DNA of 6,296 nucleotides from a virus (lineage: Duplodnaviria > Heunggongvirae > Uroviricota > Caudoviricetes): IMG/VR virus record IMGVR_UViG_2529292985_000023, one strand, 5' to 3'. Each line of letters begins with the position of its first letter. The stretch's first letter is position 1. The position numbers and the translations under genes are program-made. Shown in pieces: positions 1 to 6,296 of the stretch. Below the pieces are notes generated by a model. That model was not told the DNA's origin, made no database searches, and was given only the letters and a program-made list of their open reading frames with translations.

Positions 1-1
1 A

Positions 2-82
2 TGCCGGGCAACTGCACGCATTATGGGCGTTAGCCTCAACACGATTTTACGTCACTTAAAAAACTCAGGCCGCAGTCGGTAA
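2..82 (+). CDS. insA: IS1 InsA, C-terminal 26 codons only (5' end outside window); stop TAA at 80-82
   Basis: Frame 2 translates to [26 protein letters not shown], matching the InsA C-terminus with one substitution (GVG to GVS). Confidence 0.7.
58..64 (+). promoter_or_regulatory. IS1 programmed -1 ribosomal frameshift motif AAAAAAC (A6C) at the insA/insB overlap
   Basis: TTAAAAAACTC is present 16 nt upstream of the insA stop, as in canonical IS1. Confidence 0.7.
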
Positions 83-504
83 CCTCGCGCATACAGCCGG
101 GCAGTGACGTCATCGTCTGCGCGGAAATGGACGAACAGTGGGGATACGTCGGGGCTAAATCGCGCCAGCGCTGGCTGTTTTACGCGTATGACAGGCTCCG
201 GAAGACGGTTGTTGCGCACGTATTCGGTGAACGCACTATGGCGACGCTGGGGCGTCTTATGAGCTTGCTGTCACCCTTTGACGTGGTGATATGGATGACG
301 GATGGCTGGCCACTGTATGAATCCCGCCTGAAGGGAAAGCTGCACGTAATCAGCAAGCGATATACGCAGCGAATTGAGCGGCATAACCTGAATCTGAGGC
401 AGCACCTGGCACGGCTGGGACGGAAGTCGCTGTCGTTCTCAAAATCGGTGGAGCTGCATGACAAAGTCATCGGGCATTATCTGAACATAAAACACTATCA
501 ATAA
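58..504 (+). CDS. insB: IS1 transposase InsB reading frame, normally expressed as the InsAB' fusion by -1 frameshifting; the first in-frame ATG is at 127
   Basis: Track ORF 127-504 ([22 protein letters not shown]...HYLNIKHYQ) is IS1 InsB. The same frame is open from 34 after a TAG at 31-33. Confidence 0.85.
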
Positions 505-558
505 GTTGGAGTCATTACCCCCCGTGATTACATGGCCTGATTTTTCATACTGAAGTGG

Positions 559-1727
<1,169 letters not shown>

Positions 1728-1799
1728 TGGAGCACCTGTGTTGTTCTGAGGTGAGCATATCACCTCTGTTCAGGTGGCCAAATTCAGTGTGCCACTTCA

Positions 1800-2362
1800 G
1801 AACCAGACGTTCGCTCCTACAGCACCAAATCAGGTCTGGGTGGCGGACCTGACGTATGTTGCCACACAGGAGGGATGGTTGTACCTCGCTGGCATCAAAG
1901 ATGTTTATACGTGCGAAATTGTCGGCTACGCCATGGGAGAGCGCATGACAAAAGAGCTGACAGGTAAAGCCCTGTTTATGGCGCTCAGGAGCCAGCGCCC
2001 ACCTGCCGGGCTAATCCACCACTCTGATCGAGGTTCACAGTACTGCGCATACGATTACCGGGTCATACAGGAGCAGTCTGGTCTGAAAACATCAATGTCG
2101 CGTAAAGGTCACTGTTACGACAACGCTCCGATGGAAAGCTTCTGGGGAACGCTGAAAAATGAGAGCCTGAGCCACTATCGTTTTAATAACCGGGATGAAG
2201 CCATCTCAGTAATACGGGAATACATTGAGATTTTCTACAATCGTCAGCGTCGTCACTCTCGTCTGGGGAATATCTCCCCGGCAGCCTTCAGGGAAAAATA
2301 TCATCAGATGGCTGCTTAAAAAAAGAACAAATGGTAGTGTCCGCTATTGCCAGTACACCTCA
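1800..2362 (+). mobile_element. 3' remnant of a second IS3-family element (IS3 group, possibly IS600-like), truncated on its left by the IS911 insertion
   Basis: Contains an OrfB C-terminal half followed by a plausible terminal IR ending ...GGTAGTGTCCGCTATTGCCAGTACACCTCA at 2362. The IS600 attribution is from memory only. Confidence 0.6.
1801..2319 (+). pseudogene. IS3-family transposase OrfB, C-terminal fragment (catalytic domain); the first 9 codons of the track ORF are read out of the IS911 IR
   Basis: Translation ...PNQVWVADLTYVATQEGWLYLAGIKD...HHSDRGSQYCAYDY...SMSRKGHCYDNAPMESFWGTLKNE...[18 protein letters not shown] aligns by eye with IS3 InsF. No orfA or N-terminal part is present. 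Confidence 0.75.
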
Positions 2363-2834
2363 CCGGGTGGCATGGATAAACCCGGAAGAGAGTAAATCAA
2401 ACCGCGCAATTGGCGTTGCGCTGAATGATACTGCATGTCGCGTATTGAAAAAACAAATCGGGAATCATCACCGTTGGGTATTTGTGTATAAGGAAAGCTG
2501 TACCAAACCAGACGGAACGAAAGCGCCAACAGTCAGGAAGATGCGGTATGACGCAAACACAGCCTGGAAAGCGGCGCTGAGACGAGCAGGTATTGATGAT
2601 TTCAGATTTCACGACTTGAGACACACCTGGGCAAGTTGGCTGGTTCAAGCCGGAGTCCCGTTATCAGTGTTACAGGAAATGGGAGGCTGGGAGTCTATCG
2701 AAATGGTTCGTCGATATGCTCACCTCGCACCTAATCACCTTACCGAACACGCACGGCAAATAGACTCGATTCTGAACCCATCGGTCCCAAATTTGTCCCA
2801 GTCAAGAAATAAGGAACGTACTAATGATGTGTAA
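2363..2834 (+). pseudogene. Tyrosine recombinase (phage/P4-like integrase) C-terminal catalytic fragment, N-terminally truncated by the IS3-family insertion
   Basis: Track ORF 2331-2834 carries the box II motif [10 protein letters not shown] and the catalytic tyrosine region [13 protein letters not shown]. Only about 157 codons remain and the upstream Arg box I region is missing. Confidence 0.8.
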
Positions 2835-3062
2835 CTTATTGATTTAAATGGGATAATAGGAGCAATACACATAGGCGATAAGCTTTGTTTTTGTTGCCTT
2901 TTTTATTGTTCATTTTTTATAGATACCCCCAAAAGTACCCCCATATCTTTTTCCGCCCCTGAAATTTGGTTGTTATTCATACAGCATATCAGGCGGTAAC
3001 GCTCTCCCTTTAACCCACTTATTGTATGATAGTGCTATCCCACAATAAGGAATCAGCCAGCC

Positions 3063-3422
3063 ATGAGAATGACCAGTCGCAAAAAAGAGATACTTAGCTA
3101 CTTTGAACCGGATAACCTCGAATGGGTGACTGGTGAGATTGGTGCGCCGCCGTTCGATGTGTCGGGTGTGGCCTACCTGCTTCATGGCATGGTGTCGTTC
3201 GATAAGCGTCACCAGCTCGAATCAACCCGGCGCACACTGGAAAGCATGGTTGCTGGTGGACTGCTTGAGCGGGTGACAGTGTATGAATCGCGCCAGATAC
3301 GGCGCGGCGGTGATACTAACGCAACGGTCGTGCGCTACGGTTTACCCGGTCAGTGCGCTGTTATGCGCGATACTGGCGGCGCTGACAACGCAATATCAGG
3401 TGAATACATGCGGGTCAGTTAA
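3063..3422 (+). CDS. Hypothetical protein, 119 aa, no family recognised
   Basis: ORF with AAGGA 11 nt upstream of the ATG and an in-frame TAG 33 nt upstream; protein-like composition. 3' end overlaps the convergent gene by 8 bp. Confidence 0.5.
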   Translation: MRMTSRKKEILSYFEPDNLEWVTGEIGAPPFDVSGVAYLLHGMVSFDKRHQLESTRRTLESMVAGGLLERVTVYESRQIRRGGDTNATVVRYGLPGQCAVMRDTGGADNAISGEYMRVS

Positions 3423-3957
3423 TAGCCTGCAATCTGTCGTTGATGCGGCTCAGGTCGTAAACCCGGCGTTCAATATCCAGCATCAGGAAATTGTGGATCT
3501 CGGCCTGCTCAGGATTATCAGACTCTCTGGCCTGTAATAGCAATTCATTGTAACCATGCAAGCCGCCTGAGTTTTCCGCCGGGGTGGTGCCTTTCCCACG
3601 CAGGCAGCTAATGGGCTGATTACTCGTATCGTGTGTTTGCTTCTCCAGCACAATGACGCAATCCCACCAGTCGCCAAAGTCATACGTGTAAACCAGCTTG
3701 TCACCCTCATTCTGGAGCGCCGCCCATAGTGGCGTGATTGCCGCGTTACCCATGCTTTCATCCTCACCCCATACGCGATACTCGCTACCTGGATCACCTT
3801 TACGCCCTTTCTCGAACATATACAGGTGTTCGTCATTCCAGCCAAAAGCTAACTGGATCAAGGCATGAAGTTTACTAAAGGGGATTTGCTCTGGAACCAG
3901 CACACGCCGCCATATAGGTGGTTTGCTGTCTCGGATGGTTATCTTTAGCTGGTACAT
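3415..3957 (-). CDS. Plasmid pRiA4b ORF-3 family protein (PF07929-like; the family also annotated as IS1096 passenger TnpR), 180 aa
   Basis: N-terminus MYQLKITIRDSKPPIWRRVLVP...LHALIQLAFGW and the internal YDFGDWWD signature are as I recall for this family. AGGA lies 6 nt upstream of the ATG. Confidence 0.7.
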   Translation of the reverse strand: MYQLKITIRDSKPPIWRRVLVPEQIPFSKLHALIQLAFGWNDEHLYMFEKGRKGDPGSEYRVWGEDESMGNAAITPLWAALQNEGDKLVYTYDFGDWWDCVIVLEKQTHDTSNQPISCLRGKGTTPAENSGGLHGYNELLLQARESDNPEQAEIHNFLMLDIERRVYDLSRINDRLQAIN

Positions 3958-4077
3958 GCAAATCCTGAATAAATGCGAATCGGAAGGATAACGATACTGA
4001 CGTACTCACAATTCTGTAAAGGTGAATAAAGGAAATTTGCTTAATACGCATAAGTTACATGTGGAATAATCCCATAT

Positions 4078-4263
4078 CTACCTGCGCGGCGCTGGCTTCT
4101 TCCACTGGTAGGCAGGTGCTCGCATCATTTCGCGGAACCTGTCGCGCCGGGCTATATCGGCATTAACTGATCGTTCTATCTCCCGTTGATCTGCCTGTGT
4201 AAGCTGGTGGCCTCCGTGCTCAAGTTTGGCGATGGTCAATAAGGCTATTTCGCGTGGTGTCAT
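4078..4263 (-). CDS. Small hypothetical protein, 61 aa, basic C-terminus
   Basis: ORF with GAGGA 8 nt upstream of the ATG; same strand as the PerC-like and pRiA4b ORF-3 genes. No family recognised. Confidence 0.45.
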   Translation of the reverse strand: MTPREIALLTIAKLEHGGHQLTQADQREIERSVNADIARRDRFREMMRAPAYQWKKPAPRR

Positions 4264-4560
4264 ACGTCATATCCTCTGGAAGGATGAAACACGCCCGGAT
4301 TAAATTTCATTTTTCGCGGGTATAAAAAAACGATGGGGCGGGCAGTCCCGGATAGTCAGGGCTGTAGAGATTTGACTACCCCCTCCCCACTGTATTCAGG
4401 TTACTGCTATTCCGTTAAGCGCTGCTTACGGGGATAGCTGCGTTGTGATTTTGACCATTCAGGTCGCCGCTATTTCCTCACCGATTGGGTGCTACGCGCG
4501 CGCGTACTTGTCCCGAAATACCAGAAACCGCCAGCCAGAGGATGATTTCCCTCTGGTGGT

Positions 4561-4842
4561 CTACCTTTGCCTCTTGCCGCCATTTAACCGGAAGGCGTTA
4601 CCGTTCGGTTGCGCTATCCCCATGCGGTGTTGCGTTTCGGTAACAGCTTTATGCAGGTCGCCAAATTCCTCAACCTTCACGGGCGGGCGCTTCACGTTCT
4701 CCAGACACGTTTCACGGCGGCGCTTTATCCATTCCCGATCATCGTCCTCGGAGCATAACAGCATGACTTCCATCCATCGTGCGGCAGCTCTCCGGTATAG
4801 CCCTTTTGACTCCAGCTCTTCAGCTTTCCTGTCCCTTATCAT
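4561..4842 (-). CDS. PerC-family transcriptional activator homologue (PerC/Pch-like), 93 aa
   Basis: Translation MIRDRKAEELESKGLYRRAAARWMEVM...DDDREWIKRRRETCLENV fits the E-LE-GxxRRAAxRW-V...REWI-RR-C pattern I recall for PerC/Pch proteins. GAGAGG lies 6 nt upstream of the ATG. Confidence 0.6.
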   Translation of the reverse strand: MIRDRKAEELESKGLYRRAAARWMEVMLLCSEDDDREWIKRRRETCLENVKRPPVKVEEFGDLHKAVTETQHRMGIAQPNGNAFRLNGGKRQR

Positions 4843-4877
4843 TTCTGCCTCTCAGATTATATAGATAAGCAAAAAGG

Positions 4878-4992
4878 TGTTGGTTCAGTTGGTTCAATTT
4901 GTAAAGATCGTTGTTTTTATTATGTTTTTTTCTAAAATATTGAACCAACATCAACTCATTTTGAACCAACACAGCCCAGCTCTGAACCAACA
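4878..4992. repeat. Array of five copies of the 9-bp motif TGAACCAAC: two tandem inverted copies (GTTGGTTCA at 4879-4887 and 4888-4896) and three direct copies (4941-4949, 4962-4970, 4983-4991) phased at exactly 21 bp, separated by a 44-bp AT-rich spacer
   Basis: Read directly from the sequence; all five 9-mers are perfect matches. The array lies in the divergent intergenic region between the PerC-like gene and the RHH-like gene. Confidence 0.75.
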
Positions 4993-5057
4993 ACACAGCG
5001 ATAGCTTTGTGATTGGTCCGTTATTTTCTGGCTGATATTTGAGCGTATAACAGTGTT

Positions 5058-5076
5058 ATACAGTGGTATACTGTAT
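5058..5076. promoter_or_regulatory. Operator-like palindrome ATACAGT-GGTAT-ACTGTAT (7-5-7), preceded by tandem 10-bp units TATAACAGTG and TTATACAGTG (5046-5065); overlaps a -10-like TATACT at 5067-5072
   Basis: Perfect 7-bp inverted arms read from the sequence, 18 bp upstream of the ATG at 5094 on the plus-strand gene side. Confidence 0.4.
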
Positions 5077-5147
5077 GGATATTACTCACTGATATGGTCT
5101 TTGCAATGAGCAAATCTAATCTGATCGCGTTCCGCATCCCATCTTAA

Positions 5148-5549
5148 TTGCAGGATGAGTTTAATCGGTCTGTTCTCGCTTCTGGAGGGGATAAAACCTC
5201 CTGGCTTGTTGATGCGATTCGCATGAAGCTGGGACAGCCGGAAAAGTCTATTGATTCACGAATGCTTGGGCTGGTGGAGCGCATGGAAAAAGCCGCTGCG
5301 TCGCTTATTGCCGGAAAGCCGAACATCCCACCAAAGCCATATAACGAAACGGCAGTTATAAAGATCATTGCCGATACCATCCAACAGGGATTTGATAATG
5401 GGCGTGTGATAGCTGAACGGATCAATGAAGCAGGCTATCAAACAAAAGCTGGTAAAGCGTGGGATAAAGATATTTACAGCGCGTGGAAGCGTCAGGGAAG
5501 CAATGCTGAAAATTTAAAAGCGGTGATTGATTGTAAGGTCAGCGTATAA
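5148..5549 (+). CDS. Hypothetical protein, 133 aa from a TTG start; probably the downstream part of a ribbon-helix-helix-like regulator whose frame begins at ATG 5094 and is interrupted by TAA at 5145-5147
   Basis: Track ORF; no Shine-Dalgarno before the TTG. The same frame upstream reads MVFAMSKSNLIAFRIPS*, giving a beta-strand/helix/GG-turn/helix layout typical of Arc/CopG-type RHH domains across the stop. Confidence 0.5.
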   Translation: MQDEFNRSVLASGGDKTSWLVDAIRMKLGQPEKSIDSRMLGLVERMEKAAASLIAGKPNIPPKPYNETAVIKIIADTIQQGFDNGRVIAERINEAGYQTKAGKAWDKDIYSAWKRQGSNAENLKAVIDCKVSV

Positions 5550-5640
5550 ACATGAGTGCCCATTGGAAAGTAAGCGTACAGCCTGAACCGTCTGGTCAGA
5601 ATCTGACGAATTAGACAAAGTGGTGTCCACCAAATAAGTA

Positions 5641-6042
5641 GTGGGAACCAAAGTGTCAGATATGCAGAAAAATGTGAATCCCGGCAGGCGAAAAGGCTGC
5701 CCTAATTATCCTCCCGAATTTAAACAGCAGCTCGTTGCTGCCTCCTGTGAACCCGGGATATCCATCTCAAAACTTGCTCTTGAAAATGGCATTAACGCCA
5801 ATCTGTTGTTCAAATGGCGACAACAATGGCGCGAGGGAAAGCTGCTATTACCTTCTTCAGAGAGCCCCCAGCTACTTCCTGTGACTCTCGATGCAGCTGC
5901 CGAACAGCCAGAATCGCTCGCAGAGGATCCGGAAACCCTCAGTATCAGCTGTGAGGTAACGTTCCGGCACGGGACGCTCCGCTTCAATGGCAATGTCAGC
6001 GAAAAGCTCCTGACTCTGCTGATACAGGAACTGAAGCGATGA
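5641..6042 (+). CDS. tnpA: IS66-family accessory protein TnpA (orf1); GTG start at 5641, alternative ATG at 5662
   Basis: Translation ...PEFKQQLVAASCEPGISISKLALENGINANLLFKWRQQWREGKL is characteristic of IS66 orf1 proteins. Confidence 0.85.
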   Translation: MGTKVSDMQKNVNPGRRKGCPNYPPEFKQQLVAASCEPGISISKLALENGINANLLFKWRQQWREGKLLLPSSESPQLLPVTLDAAAEQPESLAEDPETLSISCEVTFRHGTLRFNGNVSEKLLTLLIQELKR

Positions 6043-6296
6043 TCCCGTTACCTTCCGGGACCAAAATTTGGCTGGTTGCCGGTATCACCGATATGAGAAA
6101 TGGCTTCAACGGCCTGGCGGCAAAGGTGCAGACGACGCTGAAAGACGCTCCGATGTCAGGTCACGTTTTTATCTTCCGTGGGCGTAATGGCAGTCAGGTA
6201 AAGCTCCTCTGGTCTACCGGCGATGGACTGTGTCTGCTGACCAAACGGCTGGAGCGCGGCCGCTTCGCCTGGGCCGTCAGCCCGGGATGGCAAAGT
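6039..6296 (+). CDS. tnpB: IS66-family TnpB (orf2), N-terminal 86 codons; 3' end outside the window
   Basis: ATG at 6039 overlaps the tnpA stop (ATGA). My translation MIPLPSGTKIWLVAGITDMRNGFNGLAAKVQ...GRFAWAVSPGWQS matches the IS66 TnpB family; it is absent from the ORF track because no stop falls in the window. Confidence 0.85.
   Translation, partial: MIPLPSGTKIWLVAGITDMRNGFNGLAAKVQTTLKDAPMSGHVFIFRGRNGSQVKLLWSTGDGLCLLTKRLERGRFAWAVSPGWQS

Follow-up and report, generated by a model that had tools for sequence, protein, structure and literature searches.

The closest described system to the locus analyzed here is EcCIMP1, a PICI of the commensal Escherichia coli MP1, located between proA/thrW and yagU and mobilized by the helper phage Kapi1, its helper dependence having been demonstrated (Pick, Stadel & Raivio, ISME J 2025, PMC11773190). 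When one of its genes, EcCIMP1_025, is expressed from pTrc99a in Citrobacter rodentium, a LEE1-lux fusion is silenced in both LB and DMEM, and the silencing is strengthened by IPTG in a dose-dependent manner, whereas perC of EPEC activates LEE1-lux in the same assay; those authors proposed that EcCIMP1_025 is an ANR-type (AraC negative regulator) repressor (PMC11773190). PerC variants had been noted earlier in Gram-negative PICIs by Fillol-Salom et al. in 2018 (PMC6092414), including those of EcCICFT073 and EcCIEDL933 (O-island 51), and PerC is also listed among the accessory genes in a 2026 survey of Enterobacter satellites. Beyond the satellites, three groups of small regulators are worth comparing with the protein described below. 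PerC (BfpW) of EPEC, which activates LEE1, is an 89-residue protein encoded in the perABC operon of the plasmid pMAR2/pEAF. PchA/B/C of EHEC O157:H7 are horizontally acquired small regulators of the same family that are encoded in lambdoid prophages (prophage Sp4, late region) and act as DNA-associating, anti-H-NS de-silencers (PMC4764244). The ANR family includes Aar of EAEC and Rnr of C. rodentium/EPEC, the EPEC rnr gene residing in a Mu-like prophage.

The window, that is, the whole stretch of 6,296 nucleotides of viral DNA that was analyzed, contains on its minus strand a gene for a 93-residue protein (Table 1), which is carried by a satellite, in contrast to the plasmid-borne perC of EPEC and the prophage-borne Rnr. 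The earlier note had recognized a PerC-family homologue here, and this identification, together with the Pfam accession given for it, proved correct. The protein matches Pfam PerC (PF06069) with 106.1 bits and E = 1.2e-30 against a cut-off of 22.6, over residues 1–85 and positions 1–85 of the 90 in the model, and it matches PHROG 994 end to end with 130 bits. In alignments it shows 39% identity over 75 residues (E = 3e-21) to PerC of EPEC pMAR2 and 35% identity to PchA of EHEC O157:H7 Sakai, sharing with PerC the N-terminal KGxYRRAA.RW core and C46, and retaining the KGLYRRAA..W..C core in register with both PerC and PchA. Residues L10, E11, Y16, R17, R18, A19, and C46 are invariant across 41–42 homologues; in the C-terminal half, the MGIAQPNGxAFRL motif is conserved and a basic tail is present. 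Because dN/dS is 0.10–0.24 when measured against homologues from other genera, this minus-strand frame is under purifying selection as a real gene, and by all sequence criteria, a small, all-helical build (about 90–105 residues in the family) among them, the protein is assigned to the PerC family. The same gene is named "PerC family transcriptional regulator" in RefSeq on hundreds of E. coli chromosomes; the allele is carried by 334 of 5426 complete E. coli genomes, and the exact 93-residue protein is recorded in 2435 blocks of the assembly collection. Coverage of window positions 2300–5700 stays at or below 85% in every complete E. coli genome.

Table 1 Features of the PerC-family gene and its surroundings in the window.
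Feature	Coordinates	Strand	Description
SfII/SfV-type integrase, 3' part, with attP arm	2363–2851	+	Profile match and 97% identity
att core GATAATAGGA	2852–2861		3' end of tRNA-Thr thrW; recurs as TGGTGC(C)GATAATAGGA
119-aa ORF	3063–3422	+	Convergent with the pRiA4b gene, 8-bp overlap
pRiA4b ORF-3 family protein, 180 aa	3415–3957	-	PF07929, E = 3e-42; conserved synteny
61-aa ORF	4078–4263	-	PHROG 7271
Hairpin CCAGAGG / CCTCTGG	4531–4559	-	Directly after the PerC stop codon
PerC-family gene, 93 aa	4561–4842	-	ATG 4842–4840, TAG 4563–4561; ORF list and profile match
Shine–Dalgarno sequence GAGAGG	4853–4848	-	5 nt ahead of the ATG; read from the sequence
Candidate -10 hexamer, perfect TATAAT	4861–4856	-	Read from the sequence
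Iteron array	4879–4991		GTTGGTTCA x2 (4879, 4888; 9-bp spacing) and TGAACCAAC x3 (4941, 4962, 4983; 21-bp spacing)
Divergent 147-aa gene	5107–5549	+	Nonsense change GAA to TAA at codon 14 (5146–5148)
IS66-family element	5571–6296	+	End GTAAGCG..., tnpA 5641–6042

The protein of the window is nearly identical to that of EcCIMP1. WP_000617443.1 (L023:9535–9816) is identical to it in 92 of 93 residues and is the only PerC-family CDS annotated within the interval published for EcCIMP1 in E. coli MP1; since the interval annotates no other, we take EcCIMP1_025 to be WP_000617443.1. The sole difference, T31 in MP1 versus S31 in the window, falls between helices 2 and 3, at a loop position that is highly variable among homologues. 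Positions 2849–4971 of the window are 98.4% identical in DNA to the MP1 satellite, and the flanks are the same, consisting of the 61-aa ORF, the pRiA4b ORF-3 gene, the 119-aa ORF, and attR at thrW. The two loci diverge to the right of 4971, inside the iteron array, where MP1 has a small alpA-like gene and the window the 147-aa gene; the satellite of the window is moreover truncated by an IS66-family element, unlike that of MP1, and the tandem neighbour is a vat/MarR island in MP1 but an SfII-type int remnant in the window. The gene studied here is already annotated, a 99%-identical form of it has already been characterized, and the presence of such genes on PICIs is already known.

This comparison bears directly on the activator reading of the earlier note. 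A PerC/Pch-type activator, which would associate with promoter DNA silenced by H-NS, relieve the silencing, and thereby switch on ler/LEE1 or the genes of its own module, is suggested by the full-length membership in the PerC family, the identity to PerC and PchA with conservation of their common core, the anti-H-NS action of Pch, and the AT-rich upstream region (35–38% GC). However, in the only published test, the EcCIMP1 protein (99% identical) had a repressive effect on LEE1-lux where perC activates it, a result obtained by plasmid overexpression of the T31 allele in a heterologous host, the window allele being S31; the PerC-like genes of EcCICFT073 and EcCIEDL933, about 40% identical, reportedly leave LEE1 fusions unaffected (PMC11773190, citing Porter et al. 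2005); and the coding parts of the module, at about 50–56% GC, are not typical H-NS targets. The description of the window protein as an "activator" is not supported, because its near-identical relative acts as a repressor, and for LEE1 this reading is largely refuted; overall, we regard it as quite improbable. The accompanying suggestion of cross-talk with chromosomal virulence genes has fared better, being backed by the LEE1-lux experiment, although with the opposite sign, repression.

A likeness to the ANR family offers a way to understand the negative sign, which is also that of Rnr. The N-terminal part of the protein (residues 5–50) matches the NCBIfam model ANR_neg_reg (NF033650) with 31.1 bits and E = 1.6e-7, 0.9 bit under the cut-off of 32. 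On the same model, Rnr of EPEC, a true ANR that represses the LEE, scores 56.9 bits, whereas EPEC PerC and PchA, both activating the LEE, score 18.2 and 13.6 bits, respectively; a close homologue of the window protein (P0017), which NCBI names ANR, scores 32.5 bits. The ANR signature is distributed over three helices and consists of A10, E14, A22, W26, A29, W43, and R47 (PMC4983702). Six of these seven residues are found in register in the window protein, as A7, E11, A19, W23, W38, and R42, along with a cysteine and three predicted helices, the deviations being V26 where the signature has A29 and a loop shorter by two residues. The second conserved tryptophan of the signature (W43) corresponds to W38 in the window protein and W52 in Rnr; this position is occupied by Leu in EPEC PerC and Val in PchA, and the tryptophan is found in 25 of 41 close homologues. 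In Aar, a change of W45, which is listed among the residues corresponding to the signature, abolished activity (PMC4983702), and we read that list as making W45 the equivalent of W43. The graded ANR scores place the satellite protein between the true ANRs and the proven activators, and W38 is a candidate for the residue that discriminates repressors from activators.

The likeness does not extend over the whole protein. In an AlphaFold2 model built from 41 homologues, four helices are predicted (residues 5–12, 16–29, 33–51, and 61–73), with pLDDT values of about 90 over the first 50 residues and 50–78 in the C-terminal part. Residues 50–93, including the fourth helix, are PerC-like and missing from Rnr, so that, against a yardstick of about 57 residues for the ANR signature, 54 positions for the NCBIfam model, and 77 residues for Rnr, the protein of 93 residues has an extra PerC-type half of some 40 residues added to the three-helix unit. 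Judged by score and architecture, it narrowly falls outside the ANR family while sharing the ANR core. Rnr, for its part, gives no match to Pfam PerC, and a profile–profile comparison of the PerC alignment with the Rnr alignment (eight close sequences, shallow) found the right region but weakly (E = 0.021); protein searches seeded with EPEC PerC (three close relatives) and Rnr (13) did not bridge the two families. A sequence search of the solved structures with the 93-residue protein gave no match (best E = 0.5), and a Foldseek search of the PDB with the predicted model gave none at E ≤ 0.001, the top, non-significant matches being MIT-type three-helix bundles. No gene for an AraC-family partner is found in the window or in the related satellite loci.

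Two molecular modes of repression have to be weighed against each other on this evidence. ANRs bind AraC-family proteins as well as H-NS and Ler (PMC10148876), and for this reason an ANR-like antagonism between proteins is favoured. On the other hand, Pch associates with DNA at many chromosomal loci in ChIP experiments and displaces H-NS at LEE1, without binding to, or co-precipitating with, H-NS or Ler (PMC4764244), from which it follows that a protein–protein mode is not the default of the PerC family. Taken together with the PerC-specific C-terminal half that the window protein retains, with its conserved motif and basic tail, the DNA mode of Pch makes a negative mechanism at the DNA level a live rival, in which a Pch-like remodeller would bind nucleoid-associated regions of DNA and, with no protein partner, stabilize an H-NS complex instead of loosening it, or occlude a promoter or activator site. 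The protein nevertheless has no recognizable DNA-binding fold and no significant structural match, the model is of low confidence in the very half concerned, and the score on the ANR model is far above that of Pch; we therefore consider such a remodeller unlikely.

The leftward string of the PerC gene, the 61-aa ORF, and the pRiA4b ORF-3 gene adjoining a motif array, which the earlier note described, is indeed present, and its order is conserved; the 61-aa, pRiA4b ORF-3, and 119-aa genes make up a block that is conserved at the right end of the satellite. In all related elements, the 119-aa ORF, for which profile searches gave no family match, is the last gene ahead of attR. What the note called a module corresponds to the 2.7 kb next to attR in an EcCIMP1-like satellite (window about 2852–5570) amid IS debris, the DNA common to the related loci and the window being limited to about 2831/2852–5570. 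The PICI hallmarks contained in the window are the attR core, an iteron array of the origin type, and the end genes, whereas int, alpA, and the primase gene are absent owing to the cut at 5570; complete relatives (L009 and L023) carry these three genes and both att sites.

The other two attributes given to the module, integrase-associated and IS-bounded, need to be revised. The association with an integrase is coincidental. The ORF containing the fragment (2331–2834, its first ~33 nt IS-derived) belongs to a sequence 97% identical to int and attP of the Shigella phages SfII, SfIV, SfI, and SfV, serotype-converting phages that integrate at thrW, and the fragment stops 17 bp short of the thrW att core. 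This identity marks it as the IS-cut remnant of a tandem prophage rather than a part of the PerC-bearing element, and the att core serves as attR for the satellite and, simultaneously, as the att site of the neighbouring prophage remnant. A place for the integrase among the module genes was accordingly rejected, since it is an int of the SfII/SfV type with attP and its 3' end faces the att core, an orientation known from lambdoid prophages. As for the boundaries, transposase genes of IS1, IS3-family, and IS66-family elements do flank the region physically, the left side being a stack of IS fragments, but these elements are later insertions and the bounding is secondary: the natural right end is attR, and the other limit was set by the IS66-family insertion at 5570/5571, 21 bp past the stop codon of the 147-aa gene, which truncated the satellite. 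The exact 39-nt satellite/IS66 junction is absent from species-representative genomes. The 147-aa gene is inactivated here by its nonsense codon and has no family match in profile searches; judged by eye, the N-terminus of the intact protein (MSKSNLVAFRIPSELQDEFNRSV...) resembles a ribbon–helix–helix DNA-binding domain. The possibility that the neighbours constitute a defence system was also considered and rejected, as PADLOC returned no hits for the PerC, 61-aa, pRiA4b ORF-3, 119-aa, and 147/151-aa proteins or the PanA-like pair.

The replication origin of a PICI is an iteron array adjoining the replication gene. Gram-positive and Gram-negative PICIs share a distinctive organization of the replication origin (Fillol-Salom et al., PMC6092414). 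The array upstream of the PerC gene, over which five exact copies of TGAACCAAC are counted, has its GTTGGTTCA and TGAACCAAC groups separated by an AT-rich stretch of about 44 bp; in related elements, the array consists of three GTTGGTTCA units, about 45 AT-rich bases, and three TGAACCAAC units. Wherever it is present in those elements, from E. coli to Lonsdalea, the array lies directly 3' of the primase gene, and the 147/151-aa gene has beside it a second copy in inverted orientation, as at the far end of the Salmonella elements. In the lineage of the window, this second copy is now located upstream of the PerC gene and has lost one GTTGGTTCA unit. From the location 3' of the primase gene, and from the second copy being placed with the 147-aa gene, the repeats are interpreted as origin-type iterons and not as PerC-specific operators, and the array of the window as the second, inverted copy of the origin-type set of the satellite. 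An operator set belonging to PerC itself was entertained as well and is unsupported, the same array being found 3' of the primase gene in every related element.

Whether the gene is still expressed in so decayed an element is a separate question. The -10 hexamer upstream of the start codon has no recognizable -35 element, two tandem iterons occupying the corresponding position, and no promoter upstream of the PerC gene emerged from a sigma-70 consensus scan. The hexamer is very near the Shine–Dalgarno sequence, and transcription starting about 7 nt past it would leave almost no leader. At the other end, the hairpin after the stop codon, which opens a gap of 297 nt between the PerC gene and the next gene, is not significantly more stable than shuffled sequences (z = -0.70) and is at most a weak terminator candidate. 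With no complete promoter called, with the IS66-family cut on one side and the stack of IS fragments on the other, and with the nonsense codon in the divergent neighbour, the gene could be a silent relic, intact but no longer expressed. Its reading frame is, however, unbroken and only one conservative residue away from that of the tested protein, the exact protein recurs in the 2435 blocks mentioned above, and both the Shine–Dalgarno sequence and a perfect -10 hexamer are still in place; we give a silent relic only a small chance.

The position of the PerC gene in intact satellites is informative about its native role. In E. coli, the order from the left is int, alpA, antA, DUF4222, ash, small ORFs, and the primase gene (Zn-ribbon/Toprim/DUF927), followed by genes for P22-type ejection proteins gp7/gp20/gp16 and, in some copies, sieA, then by two small leftward genes, the array, the PerC gene, and the 61-aa ORF, and at the right end by an optional Panacea-domain pair, the pRiA4b ORF-3 gene, the 119-aa ORF, and attR. 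A wider order of int, alpA, antA, primase, optionally SSB/ProQ, PerC, variable genes, orf61, PRiA4, orf119, and attR is seen in Shimwellia, Kluyvera, Enterobacter, Atlantibacter, Lonsdalea, Leclercia, Pantoea, Erwinia, Salmonella, and E. albertii, where the PerC gene comes right after the primase gene, or after a gene for SSB and/or a ProQ/FinO-like protein, on the same strand. This placement following the primase/origin/SSB (or ProQ) block is kept in at least eight genera, and in the simplest elements, origin-type iterons lie immediately upstream of PerC. Between the PerC gene and the right-end block, 0.3 to 6 kb of genes differ from element to element; the large ones among them that were scanned are tape-measure-like, encode lytic transglycosylases, or have no family match, and those downstream of PerC in the other genera matched no known defence model in PADLOC. 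Throughout this satellite lineage, plant-associated genera included, PerC is conserved in its syntenic position, and on account of this synteny its native role is unlikely to be the control of the LEE. That it is a dedicated activator of its own module is likewise unlikely, the gene lying, in other genera, in the primase/SSB operon of the satellite and being followed by gaps that hold differing genes in different elements.

It may then be asked whether the protein serves the life cycle of the satellite within the PICI–helper system, the effect on the LEE being a side effect of overexpression. The conserved position, kept even in the plant-associated Lonsdalea, Pantoea, and Erwinia, the purifying selection on the gene, and the iterons directly upstream of it in the simplest elements are all in line with such a role, as is the superinfection immunity conferred by EcCIMP1 (PMC11773190). 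Against it, the same report describes no deletion phenotype for the gene in the sections consulted, and it treats the gene as an accessory gene of variable presence among EcCIMP1-like elements (PMC11773190). A life-cycle role of this kind thus seems possible but doubtful. Examples would be the control of virion-protein or accessory genes, replication from the adjacent origin, or immunity against superinfection by the helper. Such a role is also compatible with an ANR-like mode of action.

Weighing these readings, we consider it fairly probable that the ORF encodes a PerC/ANR-like regulator of an EcCIMP1-type PICI at thrW, which acts as an ANR-type adaptor and whose effect on the LEE is cross-talk. 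In the predicted mechanism, the N-terminal three-helix bundle displaying A7, E11, A19, W23, W38, R42, and C46 would bind and block another transcription regulator, candidate targets being activators of the AraC/XylS family (for instance RegA) or members of the H-NS family (H-NS or Ler); RegA or H-NS/Ler would be plausible ones in the C. rodentium assay. The native job of the adaptor would have to do with the satellite, or with the nucleoid of the host, rather than with the LEE. We further speculate, as an idea that is rather unlikely to hold, that PerC is not an accessory virulence gene but a conserved core gene following the primase/origin/SSB block and an intermediate between ANR and PerC proteins, in which the ANR-type tryptophan of helix 3 (W38) helps to set whether the protein is a silencer or a de-silencer. 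If this were true, EcCIMP1_025 and Rnr would be anti-activators or silencers, while PerC and Pch, with Leu or Val at the W38 position, would be de-silencers; satellites, Mu-like prophages, and lambdoid prophages would carry a single superfamily of small adaptors, which would reprogramme host genes controlled by H-NS or AraC-family proteins during the activity of the element.

The present analysis corrects the picture of the module, which consists of the right end of a satellite, the remnant of an unrelated SfII-type integrase, and later IS insertions, and it adds to the published accounts the synteny of PerC with the replication module across many genera of the Enterobacterales. It also calls for caution in annotation, since "PerC transcriptional activator" as a family name suggests that the protein turns the LEE on, whereas in the one experiment on a near-identical protein the effect was the opposite. 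As the allele is common, a satellite gene that is borne by commensal strains and dampens attaching-and-effacing virulence could bear on colonization resistance, an argument already made by Pick et al. (PMC11773190).

The array of TGAACCAAC/GTTGGTTCA motifs next to PerC is laid out in related satellites as three units, an AT-rich stretch and three further units. It is an origin-type iteron set and, from E. coli through Lonsdalea, lies directly 3' of the satellite primase; in each E. coli and Salmonella element a second, inverted copy adjoins the 147- or 151-aa gene, and the array of the window is that second copy, minus one unit. Similarity to MP1 and to three other compared loci (L009, L011, and L013) ends at window position 4971, inside the array, and mosaic breakpoints are located within it. 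One E. coli genome (L006:1-8855) has a lambdoid prophage early region, comprising cI, cro, cII-like, replication, YfdN-like PerC, and Dam genes, fused directly to 73-aa and 151-aa genes, the array, and PerC, and looks like a prophage–satellite recombinant.

The 147-aa gene, which travels as a pair with the second iteron array, carries a nonsense mutation in the window at codon 14 (GAA to TAA, 5146-5148) and has no family match; judged by eye, the intact protein appears to have a ribbon-helix-helix DNA-binding domain at its N-terminus. Operator-like palindromes are also seen between the array and this gene (window 5045-5075): GTATAACA/TGTTATAC, 1 nt apart, and ACAGT-N5-ACTGT, contained in the repeats ACAGTGTTAT/ACAGTGGTAT.

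Toward attR, most E. coli copies have a SocA/Panacea-domain gene (151 aa) and a 144-aa gene, together resembling a PanA-type toxin-antitoxin system, inserted between the 61-aa ORF and the pRiA4b ORF-3 gene. The pair is absent from the window, MP1, L009, and L011, and window 3958-4077 is therefore the empty insertion site. The final gene ahead of attR, a 119-aa ORF convergent with the pRiA4b gene and overlapping its 3' end by 8 bp, is conserved in that position in every related satellite, with 67–96% identity across genera, and gave zero matches in Pfam, NCBIfam, PHROGs, and PADLOC.

Beyond attR, window 2331-2862 holds an integrase 3' fragment and attP arm of the SfII/SfIV/SfI/SfV phage type (97% identity), and the fragment stops 17 bp short of the thrW att core. 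It is the remnant of a serotype-converting-type prophage formerly in tandem with the satellite and later truncated by an IS3-family element. The left side of the window (1-2363) consists of stacked IS sequences and an IS66-family element occupies the right; this IS load, together with the Sf-type integrase, suggests a Shigella-like source or a heavily IS-laden E. coli.

Coordinates of the features in the window and in compared loci (L numbers)
Feature	Position	Strand
IS1 transposase fragment	window 127-504	
IS3-family orfA/orfB pair, complete-looking	window 1763-559	-
Second IS3-family orfB fragment	window 1774-2319	
119-aa ORF	window 3063-3422	+
Iteron array	window 4879-4991	
Divergent 147-aa gene	window 5107-5549	+
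IS66-family element, right side	window 5571-6296 (tnpA 5641-6042)	
Iteron arrays	L004:3553-3664 and L004:9844-9965	
Iteron arrays	L014:7332-7443 and L014:14020-14141	
Iteron array	L034:9851-9962	
SocA/Panacea-domain and 144-aa pair	L004:11087-11979; equivalent position in L005-L008, L010, L012, L013, L030	
Virion internal protein regions	L031:9984-12983; L036:11557-14697; L032:11133-12920; L005:4258-7829	

The EPEC ANR gene rnr (L024:3131-3364, E. coli E2348/69 chromosome) is an early-region gene of a Mu-like prophage, downstream of transposase, AAA ATPase, and DUF3164 genes, and YfdN-type PerC-domain proteins are encoded in lambdoid replication/nin regions (L006:7176-7670); thus, both small-protein branches occur on mobile elements. 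The satellites (L031, L032, L036, and L005) encode helper-type virion internal proteins, namely P22-like ejection proteins gp7/gp20/gp16 in the E. coli elements and, in other genera, proteins of ~1000 aa, tape-measure-like (TMP_2/TMP_3) or with an SLT domain, whose genes lie downstream of PerC. The type of virion internal protein carried may vary with helper-phage morphotype.
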